From Enterobacteria phage RB18, in sequence record NC_054906.1: a stretch of 64,000 nt of DNA; one strand, 5' to 3'. A model generated the notes under the pieces. That model made no database searches. It was given only the letters and a program-made list of their open reading frames with translations, and had not been told where the DNA came from. Of this stretch, positions 2,243-61,968 are shown one piece after another (position 1 is the first letter of the stretch; each line of letters begins with the position of its first letter). The position numbers and the translations under genes were made by a program.

Positions 2243-2249
2243 AATGAAT

Positions 2250-2263
2250 GGGGAGAAATCCCC
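2250..2263 (+). terminator. Hairpin GGGGA-GAAA-TCCCC after gene 19
   Basis: 5-bp stem with GAAA tetraloop. Confidence 0.5.
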
Positions 2264-2274
2264 ATCCTGCTTAA

Positions 2275-3899
<1,625 letters not shown>

Positions 3900-7658: not shown

Positions 7659-7682
7659 GGGAACCTTCGGGTTCCCTTTTTC
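7659..7682. terminator. Bidirectional terminator GGGAACC-TTCG-GGTTCCC + T6 between convergent genes 23 and segD
   Basis: 7-bp GC stem, UUCG tetraloop, T-run. Confidence 0.85.
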
Positions 7683-8344: not shown

Positions 8345-8408
8345 TTTAAACATCGCTCCGTTTGTATATGAATATAATATCATATTACTTTGGTCTTGTA
8401 AATAACTT

Positions 8409-13160: not shown

Positions 13161-13173
13161 AATATTTCCTCAG

Positions 13174-13181
13174 TATAAATA
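13174..13181 (+). promoter_or_regulatory. Late promoter TATAAATA (uvsW)
   Basis: Exact consensus 30 nt upstream of ATG. Confidence 0.7.
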
Positions 13182-13210
13182 TAGATATATTTATTACATG
13201 GTATTTAGAC

Positions 13211-14722: not shown

Positions 14723-14737
14723 GGGCTTCGGCCCTTT
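14723..14737 (+). terminator. Hairpin GGGC-TTCG-GCCC + TTT after uvsW
   Basis: 4-bp GC stem, UUCG loop. Confidence 0.45.
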
Positions 14738-14747
14738 GGAGAAAAAG

Positions 14748-14978
14748 ATGTTACTAGAATTTAAACAATTTCTTTATGAAGCTTCTATTGATGAATTTAT
14801 GGGTAAAATTGCCTCTTGTCAAACATTAGAAGGTCTAGAAGAACTTGAAGCTTATTATAAGAAAAGAGTCAAAGAAACTGAATTAAAAGATACTGATGAC
14901 ATCTCAGTCAGAGATGCTTTGGCAGGAAAAAGAGCTGAATTAGAAGATTCAGACGATGAAGTAGAAGAAAGCTTTTAA
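14748..14978 (+). CDS. uvsW.1: UvsW.1 small acidic protein (76 aa)
   Basis: Track ORF starts at TTG 14736; first ATG 14748 preceded by GGAGAAAAAG. Confidence 0.8.
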   Translation: MLLEFKQFLYEASIDEFMGKIASCQTLEGLEELEAYYKKRVKETELKDTDDISVRDALAGKRAELEDSDDEVEESF

Positions 14979-15234: not shown

Positions 15235-15324
15235 ACCCCATCTTAAAGCGCATTTCTTGTACACGCTTTAAACATGCTTCCATTTCTGCTAAAAGTCTAA
15301 ATACTTCTTTATAATTTGTCATAT

Positions 15325-15552
15325 TTACCCCATATCTCTCATATGCATATCAATGCCCATATCTTTAGAATAAAAATATTCATCAAGATATCCGGCAAAT
15401 TTTCCTTTAATATAAAGGACATCTTCACCACACGGGTGGTCGGCCAGAATACGAATATCCTGACGCTTAAGATTATGCTTTTTCATTAAGAATTGAATCT
15501 CAGTTTCAAATTCTTCTTCATAATTAAAAGCATCATCAATGCTATATCTCAT
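15325..15552 (-). CDS. Hypothetical protein (75 aa, T4 uvsY.-1 position)
   Basis: ATG start overlapping uvsY stop; synteny. Confidence 0.65.
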   Translation of the reverse strand: MRYSIDDAFNYEEEFETEIQFLMKKHNLKRQDIRILADHPCGEDVLYIKGKFAGYLDEYFYSKDMGIDMHMRDMG

Positions 15553-23672: not shown

Positions 23673-23726
23673 TCCTCATGTTATGTCAGTAAGACTACTA
23701 TAACACAATATGAGGGACTTGTAAAC
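23673..23726 (-). repeat. 54-bp leader element, copy A (early-type promoter GTTTAC-N18-TATAGT plus leader stem-loop) upstream of alt.-3-like gene
   Basis: 51 of 54 identical to 38812-38865; -35 at 23721-23726 overlaps stop of Alt paralog. Confidence 0.7.
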
Positions 23727-25783
23727 TACATTTTGAACTTTTTAGACATTCCGTTGATGTTAACCAAAGAAGCTAAGATTTGAGAAACTTCGTTTTCCTC
23801 TTCTTTTGATTCTTCTACAAGGAATTGATTAAATCCAGCCATTGGACGAACTTCTCCGGTTTCCATTAGATAGTCACCATCATATACTGATTCTTCTAAT
23901 TGTTCAGAAGGAGGAACGATTGTACCTTCGATTAGATACTTGTTATAAGCAGTTTCTTTCATAAAGTAAGTACTTACTTTATTAATCTTCAGTAAAATTC
24001 CACGCGGTAGAATAACTTCAGCTTCTGATGGAAATCCTGTTAAATGACCTGGAACGATAACTTTGATTCGCTCAGCTCCTTTAATTACCATACCCACGCT
24101 AGTTTCAGCATCTTCATTAGCATATGTAGAATGACTACCCATATGCATCAAATCTTCTGCATCAACAGAACCTTCTCCTTCACCAGAAAATACTGCGCCG
24201 GAATCATCTAGAGCCATATAGTTTTTACCATGCTCACCGAAGATATTTGGTTTAAGTGATGTCGATACGAAGTTCTTGAAATAGAACATTTTGTTTTCAA
24301 TGTTATGACGCAAAGTTTTAAAGGTAACTTCTTGTCCACGATAAAGCGTAGTTCCTGGAGGAAGAACTGAACCTTTAGCGAATGCAGAATCCAACGTCTC
24401 GATGTGCTTAATAGCTCGTTCCATATATTCTTCACGGGTAGAATCTGGTTTACCCAAAAGGAACGAGTTCATTTCAACATATGAATCTGCACAATAATCT
24501 TCAATTACATCAGATTCAGCTTGAGTTAATCCTTTTGGAGTTACTTCGGTGCTTGCGTATTCATATGCCTGAGCAGCAGATTCATTAATCAATTTATAAA
24601 TGCCATTCATGACAAATTGAATAATAGCTGTCTTTTCATCTGGCGTAGCTTTAGAACCTTTAACCAAATCATTGATAATTTTCTTAATAACATCAAAGCT
24701 ATTAGAAATATTAATATCAGCAAGATCGCTTAAAATTTTATCAGTTTTATAATCAAAGAATTCTTTATTCTTTAAATATTCTTGAGAACCTTGATATGTT
24801 ATATCGCTCTGCAACTTGATGGATGGATCACGTAAACGTGCATGGGCTAATGCAATATGATTTCGGAAGTTTTCTAGTTCATAATCGCTAGATTTAAAAC
24901 GAGAAGCACTCCTCATACCACCGATAGCTCCTTTGTTGAAGTTTGAACCAATCTGAATAACGCCAGAGTTCATTGGTCCTTCTGCTTTATATACCGGAAC
25001 TTTGGATTCAAACTCTTGATATTTCTTAGCAGCGAAGCTATCACCCTGAAGTGAAGCATCAACAGTAGAATATTGAGCTTGTGCTGCTAATCGACGACTA
25101 ATTTTAGTTTTCTGAATAACAGCTTGGTCAGTGCGCTTATCATTTTCTAAAGCAATAGAAGCAGCAACTGCGACAGCTTTAGGAACAGCATTACCTGTTT
25201 TAACGTCTACATAAACATCACCAACCTTTGATTCAACTTTTGTGAATAACTCAGCTGAAATAGGAGGTACACCTGGAATGTCTTCTAAATTGGCATTTTT
25301 ACGGTAAACCATAATATATGCATATTTCTTATCATAGTCCCAGATTTCCTTTAAAAGAACATATCGGCCTGCTCCTTTAGTACGTACTAAACGGTCAGCA
25401 ATAACTTGCATTTGACGAGCAGCGCCATTTGTTTTACTCTTTAGTACGCGGAATAAGCATGCATCAATTTTATACTGTTTCATTGTTTGAAGAGCAGTAT
25501 CAAAAACAGCATTAATGACGCCAATTGGATTTCCACCCAAGTTTTTAAGCTTAACTAATGATAGTTTCTCATTAACACCTATCATTACGATATGCATCAT
25601 TTTGTCGCCTGGCTTAACGTTTTTATTCGTATCACCGCCAGAGGTGTATGTACAAAATCTAAATCCGGGGAGAACGCTTTCTTCACCGGCTTGAATAGCA
25701 AAAATTTGTGGTATTTTATGCTTAGGATTTAAGTTAACAACCGGCGCCGAAGCGCCGTCAAATAATTCTGTAATAAGTTCCAT
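23726..25783 (-). CDS. Alt-like mono-ADP-ribosyltransferase paralog (685 aa), intact
   Basis: N-terminus MELITELFDG identical in type to Alt; C-terminal R (LYRGQ), STS (FVSTSL) and EAEV motifs; diverged central region. Confidence 0.85.
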   Translation of the reverse strand: MELITELFDGASAPVVNLNPKHKIPQIFAIQAGEESVLPGFRFCTYTSGGDTNKNVKPGDKMMHIVMIGVNEKLSLVKLKNLGGNPIGVINAVFDTALQTMKQYKIDACLFRVLKSKTNGAARQMQVIADRLVRTKGAGRYVLLKEIWDYDKKYAYIMVYRKNANLEDIPGVPPISAELFTKVESKVGDVYVDVKTGNAVPKAVAVAASIALENDKRTDQAVIQKTKISRRLAAQAQYSTVDASLQGDSFAAKKYQEFESKVPVYKAEGPMNSGVIQIGSNFNKGAIGGMRSASRFKSSDYELENFRNHIALAHARLRDPSIKLQSDITYQGSQEYLKNKEFFDYKTDKILSDLADINISNSFDVIKKIINDLVKGSKATPDEKTAIIQFVMNGIYKLINESAAQAYEYASTEVTPKGLTQAESDVIEDYCADSYVEMNSFLLGKPDSTREEYMERAIKHIETLDSAFAKGSVLPPGTTLYRGQEVTFKTLRHNIENKMFYFKNFVSTSLKPNIFGEHGKNYMALDDSGAVFSGEGEGSVDAEDLMHMGSHSTYANEDAETSVGMVIKGAERIKVIVPGHLTGFPSEAEVILPRGILLKINKVSTYFMKETAYNKYLIEGTIVPPSEQLEESVYDGDYLMETGEVRPMAGFNQFLVEESKEEENEVSQILASLVNINGMSKKFKM

Positions 25784-25786
25784 GAT

Positions 25787-27883
25787 TTATCCTTGAACGA
25801 ACTTGTAAGGCATGTTTGTAATATCTATGCAAGACGCAATAATTCCAAGAGATGATTCTACTTTCTGTTTAACATTTGATGAAACAAATGATGCAAAGTC
25901 AACTCTGTCTTCTATTTCAATATCACCTGTCATTGCAACCAATTCACCAGTTTCCATTAAATGGTCTCCGTCATAGATTACCGATTCGGTGAGTTCTTCG
26001 GTGGTCATAACTTCAGCTTGAATGAGTTTTGTATTATTAGACGTGGTTCCGTCATTATTAGAAGCATCAGTTATTTTATTAACTTTGACCATCAATCCGC
26101 GCGGTAGAATAACTTCAGCTTCTGTTGCTATTCCGAGATTTCCTGGATATACAACATTAACTTTATGAGCTCCATCAATTGCCCATCCTATTTGAACTTT
26201 AACGTATTCAGGATTTTCTTTATACGCTCTTATTTCGCTTGGATTAATAGTTATTCCTTCTTCATTTTTATCAACTGTCAATTCATTACGAGCTTCTGGT
26301 TCTAAAAGACCAATACCAGCATGTGTAATTCCAAAACGTCCAAAAATGATAGGAGTTAAAGAAGTAGATACAAAATTTCTGAAATAGAACACTTTATTTT
26401 TAACTAGTGCTTCGTATATAGGAGCAGTCATACTTTGAGCACGATAAACTGTGATGCCTTCCGGTATGCGGTCACCATTTTCAAAAGCTGAATCTAAGTT
26501 ATTTATAGCAGATTCAATTTCTTTTTCACTCATTACATCATATCGTTCTGGATTGTAACGACCTAAAAGAAGATTATTGATGTCAGTATATCCTGAACCG
26601 CAATATTCTCTAATGCCACGCTTTTGTGATGGAGTATATTTAGAACCATCGCGGGCAATAGTAATATCAATCATTGGACCAGCACCAATTCCAGAAAAAC
26701 TGTAAATCATTCGTTTGAGGAATTTAGTTTTTGCTGCGTTCCAGGAATTTTTAGTTATTTCTTCCCAGACTTCATCTGGTTGTCCTTTACGATTTTTATT
26801 ATGATTAGCAAGCCATTTATCTTTATAATCTTCAAAGAATTGATTTACAGCTGCTGCGTATTTCTCTAAACATTTTATTGAAGTAGTTGGTTCATTTTTA
26901 ATTGCATTAAAAATTACTTCTTTAATTTTTTCTGAAACTTCACCGACTTGACTCATTGGAAAGAATTTATAATCATAGTGAAGTTCATCTGCCGTTCCTT
27001 CAGCAATAATTTTTGCTGCCTTTGTTTTAGAAGCTAATGAATTAATTCCAATTTTCATTTCTTCTGCTTCGGGAATTAAAGGTGCAGTAGCTGGTTTATT
27101 AAAATTAGCTGCTGTAGATTCATACTTCTGGAATAATTCACTTTCAAATCTAGAAGATTCCAATGACTGACTTTGTGCAATTGCTCTACGGGAAATTTTA
27201 ACTTTAACGATTACAGCTTGGTCAGAACGTTTATCATTTTCTTGCGCAATAGATGCTGCAATTGCCTCATTTTTAGTTACTTGGGCTCCAGTATCTTTAT
27301 TGATATAAACATCACCGACTTTCGATTCAACTTTAGTAAAGAGCTCGGTACTAATTTCCGGAACTCCTGGAATGTCTTCTAGTGATACATTTTTGCGATG
27401 TATAAGAATATATGCATACTTTTTATCGTAATCCCAGAGTTCCTTAAGAAGGACGTATCTACCACCTGAACGACTACGGATAAGTCTATCAGCAATAACT
27501 TGAATTTGTCGAGCTTGGCCAGCAGTTTTAGACTTAAGAATACGAAGCATACAAGCATCAATTTTATATTGACGCATTGTTTGCATTGCAACAGTAAAAA
27601 CTGAATTGATATAATTAATCGGGCTTGGACCAAGACCTTTTAATTTGGCAATTGAACCTTTAGCAGTTAATGTAAAAGGAACAATATGCATCATTTTATC
27701 GCCCATCTTTAAATCGCGATTAGTATCACCTCCAGATGTATAGGTACATAAACGAAAGCCTGGTTGTTCAATTGCATCATCAACATGAACTGAAAAAATT
27801 TGTGGTATTTTCTTCTTTGGATTTAAGTTTGTAATCGGAAGAGTAGTATCTTCGTCAAATAATTCTGTAATAAGTTCCATCAT
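25787..27883 (-). CDS. alt: Alt ADP-ribosyltransferase, packaged internal head protein (697-698 aa)
   Basis: MELITELFDEDTTLPITNLNPKK N-terminus; VYRAQ / FVSTSL / TEAEV ART motifs; TATAAATA upstream; adjacent to gene 30 as in T4. Confidence 0.92.
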   Translation of the reverse strand: MMELITELFDEDTTLPITNLNPKKKIPQIFSVHVDDAIEQPGFRLCTYTSGGDTNRDLKMGDKMMHIVPFTLTAKGSIAKLKGLGPSPINYINSVFTVAMQTMRQYKIDACMLRILKSKTAGQARQIQVIADRLIRSRSGGRYVLLKELWDYDKKYAYILIHRKNVSLEDIPGVPEISTELFTKVESKVGDVYINKDTGAQVTKNEAIAASIAQENDKRSDQAVIVKVKISRRAIAQSQSLESSRFESELFQKYESTAANFNKPATAPLIPEAEEMKIGINSLASKTKAAKIIAEGTADELHYDYKFFPMSQVGEVSEKIKEVIFNAIKNEPTTSIKCLEKYAAAVNQFFEDYKDKWLANHNKNRKGQPDEVWEEITKNSWNAAKTKFLKRMIYSFSGIGAGPMIDITIARDGSKYTPSQKRGIREYCGSGYTDINNLLLGRYNPERYDVMSEKEIESAINNLDSAFENGDRIPEGITVYRAQSMTAPIYEALVKNKVFYFRNFVSTSLTPIIFGRFGITHAGIGLLEPEARNELTVDKNEEGITINPSEIRAYKENPEYVKVQIGWAIDGAHKVNVVYPGNLGIATEAEVILPRGLMVKVNKITDASNNDGTTSNNTKLIQAEVMTTEELTESVIYDGDHLMETGELVAMTGDIEIEDRVDFASFVSSNVKQKVESSLGIIASCIDITNMPYKFVQG

Positions 27884-36230: not shown

Positions 36231-37433
<1,203 letters not shown>

Positions 37434-37437
<4 letters not shown>

Positions 37438-40483: not shown

Positions 40484-41662
40484 TTAAAAATATTTTTTAA
40501 AACTCATCATAACTTTATCATCAACATCATTATCAATCTGTGCAACAAGGTAAGATGACAGTTCTACTTCTTGCGGTGCAGATTGAACATTATCAGAATT
40601 AAGATATTCACGAATCCAAGGATATGGATGTTTAACCGGAGCATCGGTAATTGGGCATGGAAGACCGCACTGTTTCATACGAGATACAGTTAAGTAATCA
40701 ATAAAGCTCCACATGCTATTTGTATTTAATCCAGGAACATCGCCATCTTTAAATAAATGAACTGCCCAATCTTTTTCTTGGCGGTTAACTTCCATGAAAA
40801 TATCAACTGCTTCTTGTTCACACTCTTGAGCAATTTTAACCCATTCATCGCCATCAGTACCAGATTGAAGTTGACGAATAATATATTGAGTGCCTTTAAG
40901 GTGAAGCTGTTCATCGCGTGCAATGAACTTCATAATCTTGGCATTACCTTCCATGATTTCCATGTTCTTATGGAAGTTAAAGGTACATGCGAAAGATACA
41001 TAAAAACGAATAGCTTCCAATGCGTTGATTACATGCAAACAGAGGTAAAGAGATTTCATTAGCTCACGCTTCCAATATGTCTCATGCTCAATAGCATCTT
41101 CAATAACGTCTTCGTCTGCATTAATTTCTTTTTGGTATTCGATATCAGCTTTAGCGTTTTCCCAATAACGAGTTTTAATCAGAACATCATCATAATAACG
41201 TCCAATGGATTCAGCACGTTTCATAATAGCTTCATCTAATACAATTTCATCAAATACCTTCGATGGATCAGTATAAAGATTTCGCATGATATGTGTATAT
41301 GAACGGCTGTGAATAGTTTCACTAAAAGTCCACGTAGCAACCCATGTATCAAGGCTTGGGTCTGAAATTAATGACATAAGTACAGCAGACGGCGCACGAC
41401 CCTGAATGCTATCCAAAAGTGATTGATACTTCAAGTTATTAGTAAAAATATCTTGCTGATACTGAGGAAGCTTGTTAAATTGTGCAGCATCCATCATCAA
41501 GTTTACTTCTTCAGGACGCCAGAAAAATGACAATTGCTTTTCGGTTAAATCTTCAAAAACTTTATGACGTTGAATATCATAACGCGCAATACCAAGACCT
41601 GAACCAAAAAACATAGGTTCTTTTAAAACATCAACTGGATTTGTATTAAAAACTGTGCTCAT
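40484..41662 (-). CDS. nrdB: Ribonucleotide reductase beta subunit, uninterrupted (392 aa)
   Basis: Di-iron ligand motifs in one continuous frame; no intron. Confidence 0.93.
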   Translation of the reverse strand: MSTVFNTNPVDVLKEPMFFGSGLGIARYDIQRHKVFEDLTEKQLSFFWRPEEVNLMMDAAQFNKLPQYQQDIFTNNLKYQSLLDSIQGRAPSAVLMSLISDPSLDTWVATWTFSETIHSRSYTHIMRNLYTDPSKVFDEIVLDEAIMKRAESIGRYYDDVLIKTRYWENAKADIEYQKEINADEDVIEDAIEHETYWKRELMKSLYLCLHVINALEAIRFYVSFACTFNFHKNMEIMEGNAKIMKFIARDEQLHLKGTQYIIRQLQSGTDGDEWVKIAQECEQEAVDIFMEVNRQEKDWAVHLFKDGDVPGLNTNSMWSFIDYLTVSRMKQCGLPCPITDAPVKHPYPWIREYLNSDNVQSAPQEVELSSYLVAQIDNDVDDKVMMSFKKYF

Positions 41663-41688
41663 AAATTTTCCGCTTAGTTAATAGTTGG

Positions 41689-41706
41689 TGACTCGTCCGT
41701 GAGTCA
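41689..41706 (-). other. Hairpin TGACTC-GTCCGT-GAGTCA between nrdA and nrdB
   Basis: 6-bp stem, 6-nt loop. Confidence 0.4.
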
Positions 41707-41713
41707 AATTATA

Positions 41714-43978
41714 TCATAATTTACAGGATGAACAATCTTCAGCTTTTGGAGTTTCTATTTCATAATCATCAGTACCAGAACCATCGCGGGTATTGTGATA
41801 ATAGAAATTTTTTCCGCCAAAATACCAAAAATACAAAAGGTCATCAATCATTATTGACATTGGAACCTTGCCTTTAGGGAAGATTTGGGGGTCATAGTAT
41901 GTATTCGCCGAAGCTGATTGACAAACCCATTTCAGCATAATAGCTACCTGCGTAAGATAAGGTTTATTACCTTTCTTAGCTAATTTCCATGTATAGTCGT
42001 AAAGGTCTATGTTATGCTCAATATTGGGCACGACTTGATTAAAGGAGCCCTCTTTTGATTCTTTAACAGAGACTGGTCCACGTGGAGGCTCGATACCGTT
42101 TGTACTGTTAGAAACTTGGGAAGATGACTCACATGGCATAAGTGCTGATAATGTGCTATTACGGATGCCAAAGAGCTTAAGGTCTTCCCGCAACGACGAC
42201 CAGTCACAAACGTATTTTGGAGCTGCGATTTGGTCAATCTTTTTATTGTACCAGTCGATAGGTAATTCGCCTCGAGACCAACGAGTGTCTGAATAATATT
42301 CACAAGGTCCTTTTTCTTTGGCGAGCTTAATGGATGCTTTAATGAGTCCATACTGTAATCTCTCAAATAGTTCATGTGTTAAATCGTTAGCATCTTCATA
42401 AGAAGCAAAGTTACTTGCCAGCCAAGCTGCATAGTTAGTAACACCTACACCGAGGTTACGACGCTTTTTAGCTTTTTCTGCTTCAGGAACTGGATATCCT
42501 TGGTAATCCAAAAGATTATCAAGAGCACGAACTTGGACTTCTGCCAATTCATTAATTTTATCTTGGTCTTGCCAGTCAAAATTATCTAGTACGAATGCAG
42601 AGAGAGTACACAATCCAATTTCAGCATCAGGGCTATTCACATCATTTGTTGGAATAGCAATTTCACAGCACAAGTTACTCTGACGAATAGGTGCCTTTTC
42701 ACGAATAAACGGAGTGTAGTTATTCGTATTATCAATGAACTGTACATAAATCCTTGCTGTTCCTGAGCGTTCAGTCATGAGCAATTCAAATAGTTCACGG
42801 GCTTTAATACGCTTTTTACGAATATTAGGGTCTTTTTCTGCTGCTTCGTATAATTCACGGAAACGGTCTTGGTCTTTAAAATAAGAATAATAAAGCTCGC
42901 CACCCATTTCATGCGGACTGAACAAAGTAATGTAATCGTTCTTTCCGAATCGTTCCATCATCAAATCATTCAGCTGAACACCATAATCCATATGACGAAT
43001 GCGGTTTTCTTCTACGCCTTTGTTATTTTTCAAAACGAGAAGATTTTCAACTTCCAAATGCCAAATAGGATAATAAGCAGTAGCAGCGCCGCCACGAATT
43101 CCACCCTGTGAACATGATTTAACTGCAGTCTGAAAATGTTTCCAAAAAGGAATAACACCGGTATGGCGTACTTCACCCATACCAATCTTAGAACCTTCAG
43201 CACGAATCATACCAACGTTAATACCAATTCCAGCGCGTTTAGAGATATATTCAACAATTGAAGCGGAAGCCTTGTTGATAGACTTTAATGAATCACCTGC
43301 CTCAATAACAACACATGAACTAAACTGTCTAGTCGGAGTACGACAACCAGCCATAATAGGAGTTGGCAATGAAATCTGTCGAGTGGATACTGCTTCATAA
43401 AAATGGATAACATGTTTTAATCTATCAACAGGTTCATCTTGATGCAGTGCCATTCCAATAGTCATAAATGCAAACTGTGGAGTTTCATAAATTTGACCAG
43501 TGGTTTTATCTTTAACTAAATATTTTTCTTTTAATTGCATCGCCCCGGAATAAGTAAATTCCATATCCCGTTCGTGCTTAATTTTTGATTCTAAAAATGT
43601 AATTTCTTCTGCTGAATATTTTGACAATAATTCAGGGTCATATTTACCTGCATTTACACAATAAGAAATATGGTCAATAAATGAACGTGGTTCATACTGC
43701 CCATAAACATGCTTACGAAGAGCGAACATTAAACAACGTGCAGCTACATATTGGTAATCAGGCTCTTCAACCGAAATAGAATTCGCAGCGGCCTTAATGA
43801 CAATAGTCTGAATATCATCAGTTGTCATTCCATCACGGAGATAAGATTTAATATTTTCATATAATTCATAAGGATCTACTGATGTTCCTTCAGCTGCCCA
43901 AGATAAAACTTTAATAATTTTTTGTGGGTCAAAGCTCTGAGAAACACCACTACTTTTGATAACATTAATTAATTGCAT
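41714..43978 (-). CDS. nrdA: Ribonucleotide reductase alpha subunit (754 aa)
   Basis: 754 aa; ATP-cone N-terminus; C-terminal CxxC tail. Confidence 0.95.
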   Translation of the reverse strand: MQLINVIKSSGVSQSFDPQKIIKVLSWAAEGTSVDPYELYENIKSYLRDGMTTDDIQTIVIKAAANSISVEEPDYQYVAARCLMFALRKHVYGQYEPRSFIDHISYCVNAGKYDPELLSKYSAEEITFLESKIKHERDMEFTYSGAMQLKEKYLVKDKTTGQIYETPQFAFMTIGMALHQDEPVDRLKHVIHFYEAVSTRQISLPTPIMAGCRTPTRQFSSCVVIEAGDSLKSINKASASIVEYISKRAGIGINVGMIRAEGSKIGMGEVRHTGVIPFWKHFQTAVKSCSQGGIRGGAATAYYPIWHLEVENLLVLKNNKGVEENRIRHMDYGVQLNDLMMERFGKNDYITLFSPHEMGGELYYSYFKDQDRFRELYEAAEKDPNIRKKRIKARELFELLMTERSGTARIYVQFIDNTNNYTPFIREKAPIRQSNLCCEIAIPTNDVNSPDAEIGLCTLSAFVLDNFDWQDQDKINELAEVQVRALDNLLDYQGYPVPEAEKAKKRRNLGVGVTNYAAWLASNFASYEDANDLTHELFERLQYGLIKASIKLAKEKGPCEYYSDTRWSRGELPIDWYNKKIDQIAAPKYVCDWSSLREDLKLFGIRNSTLSALMPCESSSQVSNSTNGIEPPRGPVSVKESKEGSFNQVVPNIEHNIDLYDYTWKLAKKGNKPYLTQVAIMLKWVCQSASANTYYDPQIFPKGKVPMSIMIDDLLYFWYFGGKNFYYHNTRDGSGTDDYEIETPKAEDCSSCKL

Positions 43979-44295
43979 AAGTCCTCAACTTGAAAATCGT
44001 CTTTAAACAATCGGTTAACTATATGAGCTATTATATCACCATGACACGGCTTTGGTTTACATGTGCATCCTAGCCTCATTCCACGTAAAGGCTCTAAATG
44101 TGCTTTAGTTATTTCTCCGGATTTAATTCGACGTATAAAATCTTTTTTGAATAATTCAATGGCAGCCTCCCGGCTGCCAGCATCTTTACCGACGTAATTT
44201 CCCCAAAATGTACCACGGTGAATATTAACATCAAAGTCGGATTTGTATTTATTCACTACCCGGCATAGACGGCCCACGCTGGAATAATTCGTCAT
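43969..44295 (-). CDS. Hypothetical Cys/His-motif protein (108 aa, T4 nrdA.1 position)
   Basis: [12 protein letters not shown] motif; overlaps nrdA start. Confidence 0.65.
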
Positions 44296-44512
44296 ATTGT
44301 TTTTCCGTTAATACAGTAATATCATAGTAACAATCGGAAGAAGTTTTAACTGTGGAAATTTTATTGTCAAAATACTCACGAGTCATTTTATGAGTATAGT
44401 ATTTTTTACCATAAATGGTAATAGGCTGTTCTGGTCCTGGAACTTCTAACTCGCTTGGGTTAGGAAGTGTAAAAAGAACAACGCCAGAAGTATCTTTAAA
44501 TCGTAAAATCAT
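44249..44512 (-). CDS. Hypothetical protein (87 aa, T4 nrdA.2 position)
   Basis: ATGA coupling to td. Confidence 0.6.
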
Positions 44513-45369
44513 ATTGCCATTTTCCCTTTAATTGCTGGATGCGATTCATAATTTTCAAGGATAAAATCTTTCGGTTTCATGTATTCAGTTAACCAGTAAA
44601 GCTGTGTTTCGGTGTCACAATTTCCAAACTCTATAGGCCAATCAATTTTAAGTTCACACAGTTCTTTAGGCTCACGACGTAAAATTTCTTTACATTGCGC
44701 AGTATGATTCATATAGATGTGAGTATTACCACCAGAAAATATCAAATCTCCTGGGATAAGATTACACATCTTAGCCACAATATGCGTCAAGGCAGCGTAC
44801 GAGGCAATGTTGAATGGCAATCCCAAGAAAACATCTACACTTCTTTGGTACCATTGTAAATCAAGATAACCATTACGCACATTAAACTGATAGAACATAT
44901 GACAGGGCGGTAATGCCATTTGATTGATTTCAGCTGGATTCCATGCTGAAACGATTTGACGTCGATCAGTTGGTAATTTTTTAATACGATCAATAGTTTC
45001 AACTAATTGATCCACACCGCCGAAATCACGCCATTGTTTACCGTATATAGGACCAAGTTCACCACTATGATATCCTAGGTCTTTAGCCTGGTTTTCATAG
45101 TTATCGTCCCAAATAGTTTTACCTTGAATAAGACTGCCATGAGTGCGAAGACGTAAATCATTAACATTGGTAGAACCGGAAATAAACCATAGAAGCTCAG
45201 CAATGCATGCATTCCAGGCGAGCTTTTTAGTTGTTACCGCAGGAAAACCTTTAGTTAAATCCCAGCGTAATTTAGTACCGAACAAAGCAATTGTTCCTGT
45301 GCCTGTTCGGTCATCGGTTTCATAGCCATTTTCAAAAATGTCTTTAATTAAATCTTGGTATTGTTTCAT
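44509..45369 (-). CDS. td: Thymidylate synthase, uninterrupted (286 aa)
   Basis: Active-site PPCH motif ([11 protein letters not shown]) in one continuous 286-codon frame; no intron. Confidence 0.93.
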
Positions 45370-45414
45370 TTAGTACCTTATATAAATTATAATACATTTT
45401 ATGAAGCTAAATAA

Positions 45415-45762
45415 TCAATACGGTTTAGCATCAAATTTTCTCTCAATTTCAGGCGTGAAATATAATTCTTTACCGCGTTTGGAAAAGCGACCAATAATAT
45501 GATAATTATTTTCATCAAATGTGATATTACCAATATCCATAGCTTTCAACCAAATATCGATATTTCTATCCAGCTTTATGTCAAAATTCCAATACGGAGA
45601 ACTATTACCGAAAATACTGCAAGCGGATTCAGTGAAACAACTGCTATAAATCTTGTCTTTAGGAACTACTAATTGATAGACGCCTTTAATAAACTGAGGA
45701 CCTTGCCATTTTGGCTGTTTCACGTCTTTTTCTAATAGAATAGGGTAATAATTAAAATTCAT
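45415..45762 (-). CDS. Hypothetical protein between frd and td (115 aa from first ATG; track ORF starts at GTG 45774)
   Basis: Continuous ORF filling the frd-td junction; no recognisable motif. Confidence 0.6.
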   Translation of the reverse strand: MNFNYYPILLEKDVKQPKWQGPQFIKGVYQLVVPKDKIYSSCFTESACSIFGNSSPYWNFDIKLDRNIDIWLKAMDIGNITFDENNYHIIGRFSKRGKELYFTPEIERKFDAKPY

Positions 45763-45782
45763 ATTTTCCGCCACGCGTTATT

Positions 45783-46609
<827 letters not shown>

Positions 46610-46620
46610 ATTATCTCCTA

Positions 46621-46953
46621 TTAAAAAGGATCAGGAACATATCCGCTAGCTTTAATCATTTTAATTAACGTTAACATTCCTTTGTTAACTGCTCGTGAGA
46701 TTTCATCAAAAACTTCATCACTAAAAAGTTCTAACACGCCCTTCTGAACTTTTAATTTACAGCCAACAATTTCTTCATCGCCTATAGTAAATTCATTACC
46801 ACCAATTCCACCGAAAAACTTAATTACACCAGTTAACTGTCTTCCACGAGAATATGGGTCGTGTGATAAAGTAATATGAGTCACCCCGGGTACAGTTTTA
46901 AATTGGCAGCGAATATTTACTTGTGAAATTCCAGTTACATGAATGTCAGACAT
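46621..46953 (-). CDS. Hypothetical protein (110 aa, T4 frd.2 position)
   Basis: ATG start. Confidence 0.6.
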   Translation of the reverse strand: MSDIHVTGISQVNIRCQFKTVPGVTHITLSHDPYSRGRQLTGVIKFFGGIGGNEFTIGDEEIVGCKLKVQKGVLELFSDEVFDEISRAVNKGMLTLIKMIKASGYVPDPF

Positions 46954-47206: not shown

Positions 47207-47226
47207 TTTATTCTCCTTAGTTGATA

Positions 47227-47261
47227 AGGCTATAGTATCACTACCATAGCCTGTTGTAAAC
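47227..47261 (-). promoter_or_regulatory. Early-type promoter GTTTAC-N18-TACTAT with 7-bp inverted repeat (AGGCTAT / ATAGCCT) around the -10
   Basis: -35 = rc of 47256-47261; -10 = rc of 47232-47237; IR arms 47227-47233 and 47246-47252. Confidence 0.55.
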
Positions 47262-47263
47262 AA

Positions 47264-47524
47264 TTATTTTTGAATTTTATCAAGCCACTTACCAAGCTTA
47301 ATCATTTCTTTAGTAGCCTTTTCCATACTTCTGAACTTAACCAATAGAGGATAGGTATCGACACCCATAACTAAGCTAGTTACAAGACTGTGTTCACCCA
47401 CAAGCCATAACGAATACGTTTGAATATCGAGCCCGTAATTTCTGTCTTTATGGACCCGTACACCCATCACTTCAAATTTCTCACTAGCTTTTTCTACCGC
47501 ATCCAGGAAATCATCTTTAGTCAT
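47264..47524 (-). CDS. Hypothetical protein (start uncertain: 47566 or coupled internal ATG 47524)
   Basis: ATG 47522-47524 lies 1 nt after upstream stop. Confidence 0.5.
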   Translation of the reverse strand: MTKDDFLDAVEKASEKFEVMGVRVHKDRNYGLDIQTYSLWLVGEHSLVTSLVMGVDTYPLLVKFRSMEKATKEMIKLGKWLDKIQK

Positions 47525-47525
47525 A

Positions 47526-47906
47526 TTAGGCCTTAAAAGTTTTTCGCAAAAGTTCAATGATTTCATCTACATTGTTTTCGTCAACAATGCAGTGAATTTT
47601 TGTTACGCCAGAAACCTTGTCTTTGACTTCATCTTTTTCAGAAGTCGGTTCTTTATACTCACGAAAACAATGAAATTCGTCTTCGCAAATTTCTAAAAGT
47701 CTATCTTTGAGGTAAAAATGCTTTCCATTTGCGCATTCAATGTGTTTTACTGCTTTATATCCATTAGCGACGGAAACTTCTTTAACTTCAAACCATCCGC
47801 CATTATCTCGAATCGCTTTAACTATTGATGAATTAGAACGTGGGCTATAATTAATAAATGTATCAATAAGTCTTGGAACAAGCTCATACTTTTTACCGGT
47901 ATACAT
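47526..47906 (-). CDS. Hypothetical Cys-containing protein (126 aa)
   Basis: ATG start; several Cys/His residues. Confidence 0.55.
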   Translation of the reverse strand: MYTGKKYELVPRLIDTFINYSPRSNSSIVKAIRDNGGWFEVKEVSVANGYKAVKHIECANGKHFYLKDRLLEICEDEFHCFREYKEPTSEKDEVKDKVSGVTKIHCIVDENNVDEIIELLRKTFKA

Positions 47907-48324: not shown

Positions 48325-49233
48325 TTAAAGGTCATTCAAAAGGTCATCCAGGTCCGTGTCATCAGCACTAGATGAACTGCCAGAGCTTGAGCTCATAAAA
48401 TCATCTTCAGTTTTTGTATTGAAGTCATCAACATTGAATGCATCCAAATCATCAGCAACTTTATCAGCTTTCTTAGCGGCAGTTGCTGCGGCACCGCCCA
48501 TCACAGCAGTTCCCATAACTTGACCGAATTTAGTGCTCAGTTCTTCAAACGATTTGAATTTATCTTTAGAAGTCATTTCAGAAAGGTCAACCATTTGTTC
48601 GAACAGTTCTTTCTGGAAAGATTCATCGTCAATGTTTGGAATCGCAGATTGATTCAGGAATTTAGATTCGTCGTAGTTACTAAATCCAGAAACTTGTTTA
48701 ACTTTCAGTACAAAGTTAGCACCTTCCCACGGACAAGTTACATCAACCGGAGTTTCACCCATTTCAACATCAACTGCAATCATTGCATTGATTTTATCCC
48801 AGATTTTCTTACCGAAACGGTATTTAAATACTTTACCTTCATTTTCTGGAGCAGCTGGGTCTTTTACTACAAGAATGTTAGCCCAGTAAGAAGTTTTACG
48901 TTTAACAAGACTGTACTCTTTATTGTCAGTGTTGTACAGATCATTTTTACTAATGTATTGACATACTGGGCAAGAATCGTAATCACCGTGGGTAGATGAA
49001 CAGTTTTCAATATACCATTTACCATTTTTCTTGAAACCGTGATTTACAAGAATTGCGAATGGTGCTTGTTCATCATTTTTAGACGGAAGAAAACGAATTA
49101 CTGCTTGACCGTTACCCGCATTATCGAGTTTCAGTTTCCACTCGCCTTTATCTTCAGAAGAAAAACCGCCTTTATTTCCAGCCAGTTTAGCCATTTGTGC
49201 AGCGAGTTCAGCAGTAGATTTACGTTTAAACAT
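48325..49233 (-). CDS. 32: Single-stranded DNA-binding protein gp32 (302 aa)
   Basis: Sequence recognised (zinc-binding H/C cluster, acidic Ser/Asp C-terminus); leader pseudoknot upstream; terminator downstream. Confidence 0.95.
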
Positions 49234-49267
49234 TTTTATTTCCTTTTTAATTTAATTAACAGTTGGT

Positions 49268-49299
49268 GCTATGACGATGTATGACCTCATAGCTGGTCA
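49268..49299 (-). promoter_or_regulatory. Gene 32 mRNA leader H-type pseudoknot (autoregulatory translational operator)
   Basis: Minus-strand RNA UGACC-A-GCUAUGA-GGUCA-UACAUCG-UCAUAGC: interleaved stems UGACC/GGUCA and GCUAUGA/UCAUAGC; matches known T4 gene 32 element. Confidence 0.85.
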
Positions 49300-49316
49300 G
49301 TGAGATAATTATAATC

Positions 49317-49324
49317 TATTTATA
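49317..49324 (-). promoter_or_regulatory. Late promoter TATAAATA on minus strand upstream of gene 32 leader
   Basis: Forward TATTTATA. Confidence 0.55.
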
Positions 49325-49332
49325 ATAAGCAA

Positions 49333-49986
49333 TTAATACTTGCAAGATTTCACAGTTTCAATAAAAACACTTTTAGCTTTCTGTGAATCAATATTTAAAA
49401 TTTTTCTATAAGCCTTTAACTTTATAGAATAATTATTCCAGACTAAATTATCAGTCTGTTCATCATGTTTATCAATTATATTTAAAAACGAATCAAGCAA
49501 GATAAACGTCTCAAACGAAATTATATTTGATTGAAGTAGTTTAAAAATATAACTTGATTGAACTTTTGGATTATACTCAAAAATTTCTTTAAAAGCAGAA
49601 ACTTCAACTTTTTTACTAAAATAATAAATGTTGCGAATATCTTCTTCAAACTTAAATTTAATTTGCTTTAAGCGTCCGATATATTCACGATAAAACACAA
49701 GTGCATCAGCGTCAGAGATGTCACCAATCCAAGCATCTTGGTTAGCAACCAAATTACTTATAAAGATTAAAGCAAGTTCCTTTAATTTATATTTTTCTGA
49801 TAACTTCTGGAAAAAATACTTATCCCTTCGCTTTTGATAAGCGGCATCAGACACCCGCATGCACCAATTATACTTAATAACATCATACTTTCCATTCATA
49901 TGTTGTTTTATCATTAAGTATAATTTATAAACTGATTTACCATCAATGTATCTTTCACCACCAGCAGGCATGCGGAGTTTAATCAT
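49333..49986 (-). CDS. 59: Helicase loader gp59 (217 aa)
   Basis: 217 aa; adjacent to gene 32. Confidence 0.9.
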   Translation of the reverse strand: MIKLRMPAGGERYIDGKSVYKLYLMIKQHMNGKYDVIKYNWCMRVSDAAYQKRRDKYFFQKLSEKYKLKELALIFISNLVANQDAWIGDISDADALVFYREYIGRLKQIKFKFEEDIRNIYYFSKKVEVSAFKEIFEYNPKVQSSYIFKLLQSNIISFETFILLDSFLNIIDKHDEQTDNLVWNNYSIKLKAYRKILNIDSQKAKSVFIETVKSCKY

Positions 49987-57328: not shown

Positions 57329-60300
57329 ATGGCTACTTTAAAACAAATACAATTTAAAAGAAGCAAAATCGCAGGTGCACGTCCTGCTGCTTCAGTATTA
57401 GCCGAAGGTGAATTGGCTATAAACTTAAAAGATAGAACAATTTTTACTAAAGATGATTCAGGAAATATCATTGACTTAAGCATTTCTGCTGGTGGTAATA
57501 TCAGTGGAAATATCACTCAAACTGGTGATTATACACAGACTGGAAAATTTAATTTAATTGGTCCGCAAATTGTAGCAAGCGGTGGATATATTGAGTTTAA
57601 TTATCGTACTACTGGAAGTGGGGCTTGGTCCGGTCAACATACTGCGAAAGCTCCAATTTTTGTAGATTTAAGCTCAGCTACTTCCACATCTGAATATAAT
57701 CCTATAATTAAACAGCGCTTTAAAGATGGAACTTTTTCATTAGGTACTTTAGTTTCTGAAGGTTCGTTGAAGATTCATTATATCAATGAATCTGGCGATT
57801 CGAAATATTGGACGTTTCGACGTGACGGCGGATTTACTGTTGACGGTGGAGGTTTAGGAGTATCAGGAGGTAGTATAACTACATCTGGAAATATTGCAGC
57901 TCTCGGAAATATTACTTCGCCTCAGATTAATACTAAAAATATTATTTTAGATACAAAAGCATTTGGACAATACGATTCGCAATCATTAGTTCAATATGTT
58001 TATCCTGGAACAGGTGAAGAAAATGGTATAAACTATCTTCGTAAAGTTCGAGCTAAATCAGGCGGAACCATTTACCATGAAATCGCTTCAGCTCAAACCG
58101 GTAAAAATGATGAAATTTCTTGGTGGACCGGAAATACACTTACTACTAAATTAATGGGTCTTCGTAATGATGGCGCAATGGTATTACGTCGTTCACTTGC
58201 TATTGGCACAATTACCACTGACGAAAATACTAACAACTATGGTTCTCCTACTCCAATGGGAGAAAGATATATTGCTTTGGGCGATGCTGCCACTGGTTTA
58301 AAATACATTAAGCAGGGTGTTTATGATTTAGTAGGTAATTGGAATTCTGTTGCTTCTATTACTCCTGATAGTTTCCGTAGTACTCGTAAAGCGTTATTTG
58401 GACGTTCAGAAGACCAAGGCGGAACCTGGACAATGCCTGGAACGAACGCTGCCTTTTTATCAGTTCAAACACAGGCTGATGAAAACACTGCTGGAGACGG
58501 CCAGACGCATATTGGCTATAACTCAGGCGGAAAAATGAACCACTATTTCCGTGGTAAAGGCAAAACTAATATTAATACTCAGGAAGGTATGGAAGTTAAT
58601 CCGGGTATTTTGAAATTGGTAACTGGCTCTAATAATGTAATGTTTTATGCTGATGGCGGTATTACATCTGTTAAGCAGCTTTCAATATATAATGGCATAT
58701 ATTTAGCAGCTAATAATTCTACTGCTGGGCTAACATTCGCTCCAACTACTACAATTGATGGTACTAAGCAAATTTTGTGGGAAGGCGGTACTCGCGCTGG
58801 GCAGAATAAAAGCTATGTAACTGTTAAAGCATGGGGTAATTCATTTAACGCATCTGGCGATCGTAATCGTGAAACGGTTTTTGAAGTAGCTGATGGACAA
58901 GGATATTATTTTTATTCACAGCGTGTGGCTCCAAGTGGCTCTGAAACTACTGGGCCTGTTGTAACCCAGTTCAATGGACAAGTTAATGCTAGAGGAAGTA
59001 TTATTACTGACGGAAGTTTTAAAGTTAATGGATTAAGCACTTTAGTCGGTAATGTTACTATGTCTAATGGTTTGTTTGTCCAAGGTGGTTCTTCTATTAC
59101 TGGACAGGTAAAAATTGGTGGAACGGCTGATGCATTAAGAATTTGGAATGCTGAATACGGTGCTATTTTCCGTCGCTCAGAAAGTAATCTTTATATTATC
59201 CCGACTCCTAAAGATGCTGGAGAATCGGGCGGTATAAGTAATCTTAGACCATTGATAATAGAACTGAACACTGGCACAGTTAAAATGTCGCATGATGTTC
59301 ATTTAGGAGATTCTGGATCTGGTACAGGACTTTTACAAGTAAGTAATAGTCTTAAAACTATTAAAATGATATGTCCAGTAACTATTAATTCACCTAATGC
59401 AGTGCTTACTCTAGATTCTCCTTCATCTTCTGCTAATTATTTACTGGGTTCTAGAGATGGAACTAGATCGTGGTATGTTGGTCTTGGTGGCGCTGGAAAT
59501 GATTTATCGCTTTATAGTCAATATAATGGACACGGTCTTGTTATAAGCAATAATTTAGTATCAATCACTAAACCTCTTAAAGTCGGAAATGCACAATTAG
59601 GAACTGACGGTAATATTACCAATGGTTCAGGAAACTTTGCCAACTTAAATACCACGTTAAATCGTAAAGTTAATTCTGGATTTATTACTTATGGAGCAAC
59701 CTCTGGATGGTATAAGTTTGCAACAGTAACAATGCCACAATCCACTTCAACAGTCTTCTTTAAAATAGTTGGAGGTTCTGGATTTAATAGCGGATTATTC
59801 ACCCAATGTAATATTGCTGAAATTGTTTTACGTACTGGTAATGAAAGACCTTCTGACTTAAATGCTGTATTATACACAAGAACAACTGGAATGTATAGCG
59901 CAGCATTTAGAAATATTGCAGTTAACAATGTCTCTGGAAATACATATGACATTTATGTTTATGCTGGAACATATTGTAATCAACTAGTTTGTGAATGGTC
60001 ATGTACCGAAAATGCTACTGTTAGCGTTATTGGTATTAACTCATCTACCCAATCACCTGTGGATGCTCTTCCAGATACAGCAGTTGATGGGCAAGTTGCT
60101 AATGTTCTTAATAACTTGGTTGATCGCGGTAAAGTTAAGCGTTATGAAGCCGATTCTGAAATAGCTATTAATAGCCCAACCGGTATTCGTATCAGAAGCA
60201 ATGGCGATAAAACTGGTTCTGTTGCTACAATGCTACGAAATGATGGCGGCAGTTTTTATATTCTGTTTACAGATAAAAATGCCACCGATGGCGCAGCAAC

Positions 60301-61114
60301 TGTTAATGGTGATTGGAATAGTAAACGTCCTTTCGCAATTAACTTAACAACCGGCGAAGTGATGATGAATAATGGCATAGCTGTTCGCAGCGCTGCTTTA
60401 TTCTATAATAGCATAAACGTCAAAGATAATGGTTCTATTAACTTTGATAAATCAGGTGCTAACCCGAGAAATATGAGAATATTTCATGCTGGCGATGCTT
60501 CTCGCGGTAACCGCATTGAAATTGCAGATGAAACTAACTATATTGCTTACTTTGAAAAGGCTCCAGGTGGAGCTAACCGCTTTGTAGTAAATAATGCTAC
60601 TGTAGCTGGTGTTAACCAAATGAATTCATTTGGTATTAATATCAATAACGCACTTGGTGGAAATAGTATAGCATTTGGTGATAGCGATACTGGTATTAAG
60701 CAAAATGGCGATGGATTATTAGACATATATGCGAACAGCGTACAAGTGTTCCGTTTCCAAAACGGTGATTTGTACTCATACAAAAATATAAATGCTCCAA
60801 ACGTTTATATTCGTTCTGATATTCGTTTAAAATCCAACTTTAAGCCTATCGAAAATGCACTTGATAAAGTTGAAAAACTTAACGGTGTCATTTACGATAA
60901 AGCTGAATACATCGGTGGAGAGGCAATTGAAACTGAAGCGGGTATTGTGGCTCAAACGTTACAAGACGTTTTACCAGAAGCTGTCCGCGAAACAGAAGAT
61001 AGCAAGGGTAATAAAATACTCACTGTTTCTTCTCAAGCCCAGATTGCTCTTCTGGTTGAAGCTGTGAAAACACTTTCTTCTCGTGTAAAAGAACTTGAAT
61101 CTAAACTTATGTAA
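57329..61114 (+). CDS. 37: Long tail fiber distal subunit gp37, T2-type (1261 aa) with C-terminal intramolecular-chaperone-like domain
   Basis: Conserved N-terminal region; length differs from T4 (1026 aa from memory); C-terminal coiled segment ending ...KELESKLM. Confidence 0.9.
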   Translation: MATLKQIQFKRSKIAGARPAASVLAEGELAINLKDRTIFTKDDSGNIIDLSISAGGNISGNITQTGDYTQTGKFNLIGPQIVASGGYIEFNYRTTGSGAWSGQHTAKAPIFVDLSSATSTSEYNPIIKQRFKDGTFSLGTLVSEGSLKIHYINESGDSKYWTFRRDGGFTVDGGGLGVSGGSITTSGNIAALGNITSPQINTKNIILDTKAFGQYDSQSLVQYVYPGTGEENGINYLRKVRAKSGGTIYHEIASAQTGKNDEISWWTGNTLTTKLMGLRNDGAMVLRRSLAIGTITTDENTNNYGSPTPMGERYIALGDAATGLKYIKQGVYDLVGNWNSVASITPDSFRSTRKALFGRSEDQGGTWTMPGTNAAFLSVQTQADENTAGDGQTHIGYNSGGKMNHYFRGKGKTNINTQEGMEVNPGILKLVTGSNNVMFYADGGITSVKQLSIYNGIYLAANNSTAGLTFAPTTTIDGTKQILWEGGTRAGQNKSYVTVKAWGNSFNASGDRNRETVFEVADGQGYYFYSQRVAPSGSETTGPVVTQFNGQVNARGSIITDGSFKVNGLSTLVGNVTMSNGLFVQGGSSITGQVKIGGTADALRIWNAEYGAIFRRSESNLYIIPTPKDAGESGGISNLRPLIIELNTGTVKMSHDVHLGDSGSGTGLLQVSNSLKTIKMICPVTINSPNAVLTLDSPSSSANYLLGSRDGTRSWYVGLGGAGNDLSLYSQYNGHGLVISNNLVSITKPLKVGNAQLGTDGNITNGSGNFANLNTTLNRKVNSGFITYGATSGWYKFATVTMPQSTSTVFFKIVGGSGFNSGLFTQCNIAEIVLRTGNERPSDLNAVLYTRTTGMYSAAFRNIAVNNVSGNTYDIYVYAGTYCNQLVCEWSCTENATVSVIGINSSTQSPVDALPDTAVDGQVANVLNNLVDRGKVKRYEADSEIAINSPTGIRIRSNGDKTGSVATMLRNDGGSFYILFTDKNATDGAATVNGDWNSKRPFAINLTTGEVMMNNGIAVRSAALFYNSINVKDNGSINFDKSGANPRNMRIFHAGDASRGNRIEIADETNYIAYFEKAPGGANRFVVNNATVAGVNQMNSFGININNALGGNSIAFGDSDTGIKQNGDGLLDIYANSVQVFRFQNGDLYSYKNINAPNVYIRSDIRLKSNFKPIENALDKVEKLNGVIYDKAEYIGGEAIETEAGIVAQTLQDVLPEAVRETEDSKGNKILTVSSQAQIALLVEAVKTLSSRVKELESKLM

Positions 61115-61116
61115 AA

Positions 61117-61132
61117 GAGGGCTTCGGCCCTC
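61117..61132 (+). other. Hairpin GAGGGC-TTCG-GCCCTC between genes 37 and 38
   Basis: 6-bp stem, UUCG loop; no immediate U-tract. Confidence 0.5.
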
Positions 61133-61144
61133 TAAGGATTTTTA

Positions 61145-61936
61145 ATGGCAATTGTAGGTGTTCCTGGCTGGATTGGCGAATCTGCCGTGAATGAAACTGG
61201 ACAACGTTGGATGGATGCTGCAATGAAAGCAGTTCGTGTTTCAGTTCCTGGTTGGATGAGCTCAATGGCTGGACAATCTAAAGAAGTATATTACAGCATT
61301 GGTGCTAGCAATTCTTATAATAAAGATACACTAATAAATTGGATAAAAGCCCAAGGAAGTACTCCTGTTGTTATTACTATTACAGGAAATATTGTTTCTC
61401 AATCTACTGGTGTTCCATGCTTAGATTTTCCTAGCTCATTAACTAATGCATATGTTACCTTAAATATTAATAGTGGGGTTCATGTATTAGGTCGGGGAGG
61501 AAATGGCGGAAGTAACTCTGCTGGTGGAGCAGGAGGAACTGCAATAAATAACGGAATTGGAACTCGTTTAAGAATAAACAATAATGGTATTATTGGTGGC
61601 GGTGGCGGTGGCGGCGCAGGTGCTAGATACAATCCTTTCCCTCAAATGGATATGAAATTTGGTGGCGGCGGAGGTCGTCCATTTGGCGCAGCTGGCGCAG
61701 CAGGAGGTGGCGCAGCTGCAGCATCTGCTGGTACAATTTCTGCTCCCGGTAAAGGCACTGTTTCTGGGGTTCACCATGGAGGAGATGGTGGAGATTTAGG
61801 AGCTGCTGGCAAATCTTCATATATTCAAGGTGGTACTGGAGGAACTGTTCACTCGGGTGGTGCTGCGGGTAAAGCTGTTACTGGTAATGCTCCAACTTGG
61901 ACTAAAGTTGGCACAATATATGGTTCAAGAGTATAA
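61145..61936 (+). CDS. 38: Tail fiber adhesin gp38, T2-type with glycine-rich motifs (263 aa)
   Basis: Poly-Gly segments (GGGGGGGAGA, FGGGGGRPFG) separating variable segments; conserved N-terminus MAIVGVPGWIGES. Confidence 0.88.
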   Translation: MAIVGVPGWIGESAVNETGQRWMDAAMKAVRVSVPGWMSSMAGQSKEVYYSIGASNSYNKDTLINWIKAQGSTPVVITITGNIVSQSTGVPCLDFPSSLTNAYVTLNINSGVHVLGRGGNGGSNSAGGAGGTAINNGIGTRLRINNNGIIGGGGGGGAGARYNPFPQMDMKFGGGGGRPFGAAGAAGGGAAAASAGTISAPGKGTVSGVHHGGDGGDLGAAGKSSYIQGGTGGTVHSGGAAGKAVTGNAPTWTKVGTIYGSRV

Positions 61937-61968
61937 TTTTTGAATAAATATCCTTAAAAGGAGGGTCT

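Follow-up and report, generated by a model that had tools for sequence, protein, structure and literature searches.

Intron-free td and nrdB and empty homing-gene slots in Enterobacteria phage RB18 point to a probable recipient role in crosses with T4

The 64-kb stretch of Enterobacteria phage RB18 DNA analysed here (NC_054906.1; 'the window') most probably belongs to a Tequatrovirus of the RB14/RB32/T2 type with few homing-endonuclease genes, intron-free and with short spacers, that would act as a recipient in mixed infection with T4 (roughly 0.88 in our estimate). Alignment with T4 reveals five precise absences, namely the td intron, the nrdB intron, segE, segG, and mobE together with nrdB.1, and segD, which is common to T4, is the sole homing-endonuclease gene in the window. 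The features that bear on this reading are collected in Table 1.

Table 1. Genes, empty insertion sites, empty spacers and endonuclease target positions in the window (positions count from the first letter of the window)
Feature	Position	Strand	Description	Basis or remark
gene 23	6067-7632	+		ORF list
segD	7682-8353	-	GIY-YIG endonuclease gene antisense between 23 and 24	
gene 24	8444-9727	+		ORF list
inh	12480-13160	-		ORF list
inh-uvsW spacer	13161-13210	.	Empty segE slot, 50 bp	
uvsW	13211-14722	+		ORF list
nrdB	40484-41662	-	392 codons, single frame, no intron	ORF list; Pfam Ribonuc_red_sm, E 6e-37
Empty nrdB intron insertion site	40986-40987	-		598-nt gap vs T4 falls exactly here
nrdB codon 42	41537-41539	-	AAG	T2 AAG, T4 CGG
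nrdA-nrdB spacer	41663-41713	-	Empty mobE/nrdB.1 slot, 51 bp	Same short spacer in T2
nrdA	41714-43978	-	754-aa ORF	94% identity to T4 nrdA region
td	44509-45369	-	286 codons, single frame, no intron	Pfam Thymidylat_synt, E 2.5e-95
I-TevI homing-site equivalent	44810-44847	-	38 bp, -27 to +11	
Empty td intron insertion site	between 44821 and 44820	-		T4 has 1017-nt intron here
gene 32	48325-49233	-	302-aa ORF	SegG target gene per Table 1 of PMC2988022
59-32 spacer	49234-49332	-	Empty segG slot, 99 bp	
gene 59	49333-49986	-		ORF list

Gene identities were taken from colinear blastn matches (94-98% identity) to the annotated T4 record (NC_000866). The window runs colinear with T4 from position 100000 to about 162250, and most of it shows 94-98% identity. 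Against spliced T4 td, the td gene aligns without gaps and is identical at 238 of 287 positions (stop counted), and nrdB is colinear with spliced T4 nrdB except for a 12-nt indel distant from the insertion site; in length it equals T2 nrdB, at 94% nucleotide identity. Nothing corresponding to the T4 introns, which measure about 1017 nt in td and 598 nt in nrdB, lies at the conserved insertion sites, and the gaps are exactly intron-length. A sequence-only reading of this DNA had described td and nrdB as continuous frames without introns, a description borne out by the ORF list and by these gaps, and the alignment check that it proposed found no intron sequence inside either gene. Global alignment with MAFFT put the td intron gap in the wrong place, owing to the strong divergence of the 3' exon, and splice positions that keep the frame open were enumerated instead. 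An Rfam search detected no group I intron in the window, but it detected none in a T4 control segment holding both introns either; because the positive control was also blank, this negative carries no weight, and the conclusion is drawn from the alignments.

The intergenic absences are equally sharp in alignment. T4 positions 112045-112679 (segE, 635 bp) are replaced by 19 bp in the window, positions 147919-148541 (segG, 623 bp) by 35 bp, and the 700 bp of T4 nrdB.1 plus mobE by 55 unaligned bases. The earlier claim that the inh-uvsW and 32-59 junctions are too short to hold segE and segG stands on spacer length and on the T4 alignment. It had drawn on a T4 gene order (segE between inh and uvsW, segG between 32 and 59) that is right according to the annotated T4 record and to Edgell, Gibb and Belfort 2010, whose Table 1 gives the T4 positions of segE, segG and segD (PMC2988022); the T4 record also places segD antisense between 23 and 24, I-TevI within td and the I-TevIII relic within nrdB. 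Across the inh-uvsW junction the window is identical to T2 at 201/201 positions, and across the 59-32 spacer at 112/112; the latter contains a TATAAATA motif, read directly from the sequence, and the region just upstream of gene 32. The absence of mobE and nrdB.1 from the nrdA-nrdB spacer had been overlooked in the earlier reading.

The GIY-YIG gene reported between genes 23 and 24 is indeed present, and its identity can be sharpened. Translated from the ATG at 8353, its product matches T4 SegD at 223/223 amino acids, with 99.7% identity in DNA, and the gene previously called 'segD-like' is segD itself. The open frame extends to an upstream ATG at 8383 (ORF 7682-8383). Profile searches gave 27.8 bits for Pfam SegE_GIY-YIG (PF19835), above the cut-off of 25, 19.1 bits for PF01541, below its cut-off of 22.6, and PHROGs phrog_314 (homing endonuclease) at E 4.9e-57. 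The segD interval differs from T4 at 5 positions in 811 bp, and parts of genes 23 and 24 differ at up to 11 positions per 200 bp; T2, which is without segD, has 60 bp here vs 788 bp in the window. Because T4 has an identical segD, the gene would make no donor or recipient difference in a T4 cross. A passage of PMC2330249 mentions SegD activity in T4-infected extracts and, by the title of Sokolov et al. 2018 (cited in PMC10448857), SegD does not home its own gene.

Among relatives, the nrdB-td block matches >500 Tequatrovirus genomes, the best at about 98% (ESh33, JLBYU22 and RB14) and all annotated with plain nrdA, nrdB, td and denA. RB14, RB32, ESh33, JLBYU22 and teqsoen each carry a block 98% identical to that of the window and annotated without introns. 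Over 25 kb the best matches reach about 97% identity, and no record in the searched collection is identical to the window (best about 97-98%). T2 (AP018813) is colinear with the window through the td, nrdA-nrdB, inh-uvsW and 59-32 loci and, as in the window, has an uninterrupted td of 861 nt (286 codons) and nrdB of 1179 nt (392 codons). Its nrdA-nrdB, inh-uvsW and 59-32 spacers measure 51, 50 and 99 bp, the last two base-identical to the window, and in both phages a small additional ORF separates frd from td and two alt-like genes stand in tandem. Unlike the window, T2 has no segD, and its td is T4-type, at 78% identity to that of the window. T4 shares the gene order and an identical SegD protein but differs in having a td intron with I-TevI, an nrdB intron with an I-TevIII relic, mobE plus nrdB.1, segE and segG. 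With spacers of 50, 99 and 51 bp, the window fits the arrangement of T2/RB14-type Tequatrovirus genomes poor in homing-endonuclease genes.

This arrangement is common. The nrdB-td block is covered to 80% or more in about 578 records, and a T4 element was counted wherever a record contained 80% or more of it, a rough measure that includes duplicates and partial records: the td intron is found in 197 records, the nrdB intron in 118, segE in 159, segG in 142, T4-type nrdB.1 plus mobE in 20 (143 with partial matches) and segD in 51. On these rough counts, the T4 introns and homing genes are more often absent than present, and presence of segD is the less common feature, in agreement with published surveys. 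T4 is an outlier with 15 homing-endonuclease genes, and the majority of its relatives have only a few or lack them (PMC2988022, PMC2993671). In Table 5 of Petrov et al. 2010 the totals are 15 for T4, 2 for RB14, 4 for RB32, 1 for T2 and none for RB26 (PMC2993671), and the two of RB14 are seg-like, none being intron-encoded (PMC2993671). The absence of introns and homing genes here is ordinary and already documented for T4 relatives.

The MobE region of nrdB is of T2 type. MobE nicks T2 nrdB in codon 42, which is AAG in all phages without mobE, and its proposed recognition region comprises the polymorphic nucleotides 114-131 and the FFWRPEE codons (PMC2790892). The window carries the T2 codon, agrees with T2 at 17/18 positions of nucleotides 114-131 (the single difference being at nucleotide 129) and has the FFWRPEE codons as well; nrdB shows no difference from T2 over its first 128 nt, and 56 of the 59 sites that separate T2 from T4 between window positions 41500 and 41749 are T2-like. 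The gene is thereby predicted to be a MobE target of the T2 type, in agreement with the published description. Bases around the I-TevIII cleavage positions (-14/-16; PMC1865063) are the same as in T4, and from -31 to +25 the insertion site departs from the T4 exon junction at no more than 2 bases, pointing to a nearly intact I-TevIII homing site. A chimeric query that fused nrdB exon 1 of the window type with the nrdB intron matched about 10 records at 97-98%, which shows that this exon also occurs with the intron. Because T4 I-TevIII is defective, transfer of the nrdB intron would depend on MobE.

The td gene of the window is a divergent allele, with 77% nucleotide and 83% amino-acid identity to T4 and 77-78% nucleotide identity to T2; T2 td is 96% identical to T4 td, that is, a T4-type allele. 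In the 38-bp I-TevI site, for which the span -27 to +11 is our own placement, the window has 10/38 mismatches to T4 and T2 has 6; in the 20-bp primary binding region, which is centred on the insertion site, it has 5/20, the same number as T2. The cleavage motif 5'-CNNNG-3', which lies 23/25 nt upstream of the insertion site (PMC2988022), is kept, as CAAAG at the position of T4 CAACG. At the insertion positions where the sequence-only reading proposed to look for intact homing sites, nrdB is nearly identical to T4 and td retains this motif. Around the td cleavage site every changeable synonymous position has changed (Arg CGC to AGA, Ser TCA to AGT), and only two bases stay the same, C in the Gln codon and G in the Arg codon.

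The same td allele occurs elsewhere with an intron. A chimeric query made of the end of window exon 1 and the start of the T4 intron, against which a T4-type junction would score about 92%, matched U5 td (AY262155) at 97.7% identity and about a dozen (~12-16) other genomes at 95-97.5%. When spliced, U5 td has 98% nucleotide identity to window td and encodes the same protein, but it carries a 1016-nt intron where window td is uninterrupted. Almost all differences between the two genes fall between the I-TevI cleavage site and the insertion site: the 50 bases before the insertion site hold 8 and the 50 after it hold 2. Over roughly -28 to +3, U5 is T4-like, reading TATCAACGCTCAGTAGATGTTTTCTTGGGT up to the insertion site and CTT beyond it, and the window reads TACCAAAGAAGTGTAGATGTTTTCTTGGGA and TTG there. 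This T4-like stretch in U5 is the co-conversion tract that I-TevI cleavage at -23/-25, followed by repair from an intron donor, is expected to leave; the window-type td allele has therefore acquired the intron in nature.

The U5 comparison also bears on the proposal that target-site polymorphisms protect the empty sites, so that the phage would neither donate nor receive elements there. The recoding of CGC TCA to AGA AGT within an I-TevI site with so many mismatches is what such protection might look like, the allele is uninterrupted in about 100 records vs about 12-16 with the intron, and gene 32, between nucleotides 200 and 300, has the T4 base at several positions where T2 and T4 differ. 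We nevertheless consider such protection distinctly unlikely: the C and G of CNNNG are kept at their natural distance and I-TevI can accommodate many substitutions (PMC2988022), the sequence is T2-type in the MobE region and in the segE spacer, and U5 shows the allele invaded, with a co-conversion tract beginning at the cleavage site. The narrower suggestion that the U5-type td allele is partly refractory to I-TevI we likewise regard as unlikely.

A different history, in which introns and homing genes were formerly present and then precisely lost, would make the empty sites secondary. It could draw on a shift in window-T4 identity near the nrdB insertion site, from 85% in exon 1 to 98% in exon 2, and on the near-identity of segD to that of T4, which shows recent exchange with T4-like phages. 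The identity drop, however, reflects T4's own divergent exon 1 and is seen equally in T2, and three-way informative sites give no clean T2-to-T4 switch at the insertion site; we examined the breakpoint as a possible scar of intron loss and rejected it on these grounds. In td, the bases beside the insertion site are without the T4-like co-conversion signature seen in U5, and T2, itself without segE and segG, has the same inh-uvsW and 59-32 spacers base for base. Taken with these observations, precise loss seems highly improbable, and we retain the reading of the window as a T2-like genome segment with empty sites that would be filled in a cross with T4.

For the td, nrdB and mobE loci, this recipient role is well supported by inference from the natural intron-bearing counterparts of td and nrdB and from the T2-type MobE target. 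For segE and segG it is suggested, by analogy, only by the T2-like arrangement. SegE cuts the hoc.1-uvsW spacer of the segE-less phages RB30 and RB52, with homing of almost 100% (PMC2330249). Gene 32 is a T2/T4 mosaic, with 97.5% nucleotide identity to T2 and 97.6% to T4. In a mixed infection, I-TevI, MobE, SegE and SegG from T4 would cut or nick td, nrdB, the inh-uvsW spacer and gene 32, and in the ensuing repair, with T4 DNA as template, the phage would gain the td intron, segE, segG and mobE, the last accompanied by the nrdB intron, as well as T4 sequence on their flanks. No transfer in the opposite direction would be expected within the 64-kb interval, in which five mobile elements of T4 are missing from the window and none of the window is missing from T4. 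The claim that this phage would be a recipient rather than a donor towards T4 is accordingly upheld as an inference, given the five absent elements, the T2-like loci, the intron-bearing counterparts of its alleles and the T2-type codon at the MobE nick site. It agrees with the exclusion of T2 markers by T4, which is strongest at T4 homing-endonuclease cleavage sites (PMC2790892, PMC2988022).

Window DNA without a counterpart in T4 was found at 15235-15335, 37136-37430, 45373-45777, 46384-46941 and 47221-47532, in the alt region and in the gene 37/38 region. ORFs 45415-45774, 46364-46609, 46621-46953, 47264-47566 and 37135-37437 were considered as hidden homing genes and rejected, as Pfam and PHROGs searches gave no nuclease domain in them. 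Homing genes outside the 64-kb window could allow the phage to act as a donor elsewhere in its genome.

The finding adds one genome to a well-documented pattern and matters little beyond the example value of the td/U5 pair. If the td allele were partly refractory, this could explain why most of its carriers are intron-free despite circulating intron-bearing phages. The recoded Arg-Ser codons show why the I-TevI CNNNG motif relies on bases beyond the reach of synonymous change, and window td and U5 td, as the same allele without and with the intron, offer a textbook example of co-conversion.

The td gene of the window is a divergent allele, 77% identical at the nucleotide level to that of T4 and likewise to that of T2, and it differs at the I-TevI cleavage site, where the essential Arg-Ser codons CGC TCA are replaced by AGA AGT, with codon families swapped. 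The same allele is found in phage U5 (AY262155), where it carries the intron, and a T4-like tract spans positions of about -28 to +3 around the insertion site. At positions 2150-3455 of its record, phage e11/2 (KJ668714) joins a window-type td exon to a short intervening sequence of ~440 nt, in which the I-TevI remnant is only 168 nt. This intervening sequence looks like an intron from which the endonuclease gene has been mostly deleted. Rfam searches of T4 positions 134000-150000 at gathering thresholds detected neither the td nor the nrdB group I intron; Rfam intron screens of T4-like phages give false negatives.

The nrdA-nrdB interval also differs from that of T4, in which nrdB.1 and mobE fill 700 bp; both genes are missing from the window, an absence that the sequence-only reading had not listed. 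The coordinates of this spacer and of other features are collected below.

Features of the window compared with T4 and T2 (blank cells, no entry)
Feature	Coordinates	Strand	Details
uvsW 503-aa ORF, then separate 80-aa ORF	13211-14978		80-aa ORF at 14736-14978
Insertion, absent from T4 and T2	15235-15335		101 bp; adjoins uvsY.-1
Tandem full-length alt-like genes	23726-27883		685 and 698 aa
100-aa ORF	37135-37437	-	phrog_2364 match (unknown function)
nrdA-nrdB spacer, without mobE and nrdB.1	41663-41713		51 bp; likewise in T2
td	44509-45369	-	
Insertion relative to T4, between frd and td	45373-45777		405 bp; holds 119-aa ORF
119-aa ORF	45415-45774	-	phrog_1928 match (unknown function)
Small genes absent from T4, in the frd-frd.2 interval	46364-46953 and 47264-47566		
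Gene 37 distal part and gene 38	57475-61943		

At the position of the 119-aa ORF, which matched no Pfam family, T2 encodes an ORF of 115 aa, whereas frd and td of T4 overlap directly. Three proteins, none resembling a nuclease, are encoded by the extra genes between frd and frd.2: 81 aa (phrog_3183), 110 aa (DUF7247) and 100 aa (phrog_4423). The phrog_2364 ORF sits in a 295-bp insertion, relative to T4, between pseT and pseT.1, and the insertion beside uvsY.-1 appears to hold an ORF of ~30 codons on the minus strand.

The arrangement of uvsW followed by a separate ORF is shared with T2, whereas the T4 RefSeq record gives a single uvsW of 587 aa, annotated with a note on sequence discrepancies at that spot. 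Gene 38 and the distal part of gene 37 do not resemble their T4 counterparts, with which they are 75% identical or do not align, and the ORF downstream of gene 37 encodes 263 aa compared with 183 aa for T4 gp38. T2, like the window, carries a tandem pair of full-length alt-like genes, whereas T4 has a single alt gene plus the relics alt.-1 and alt.-2.
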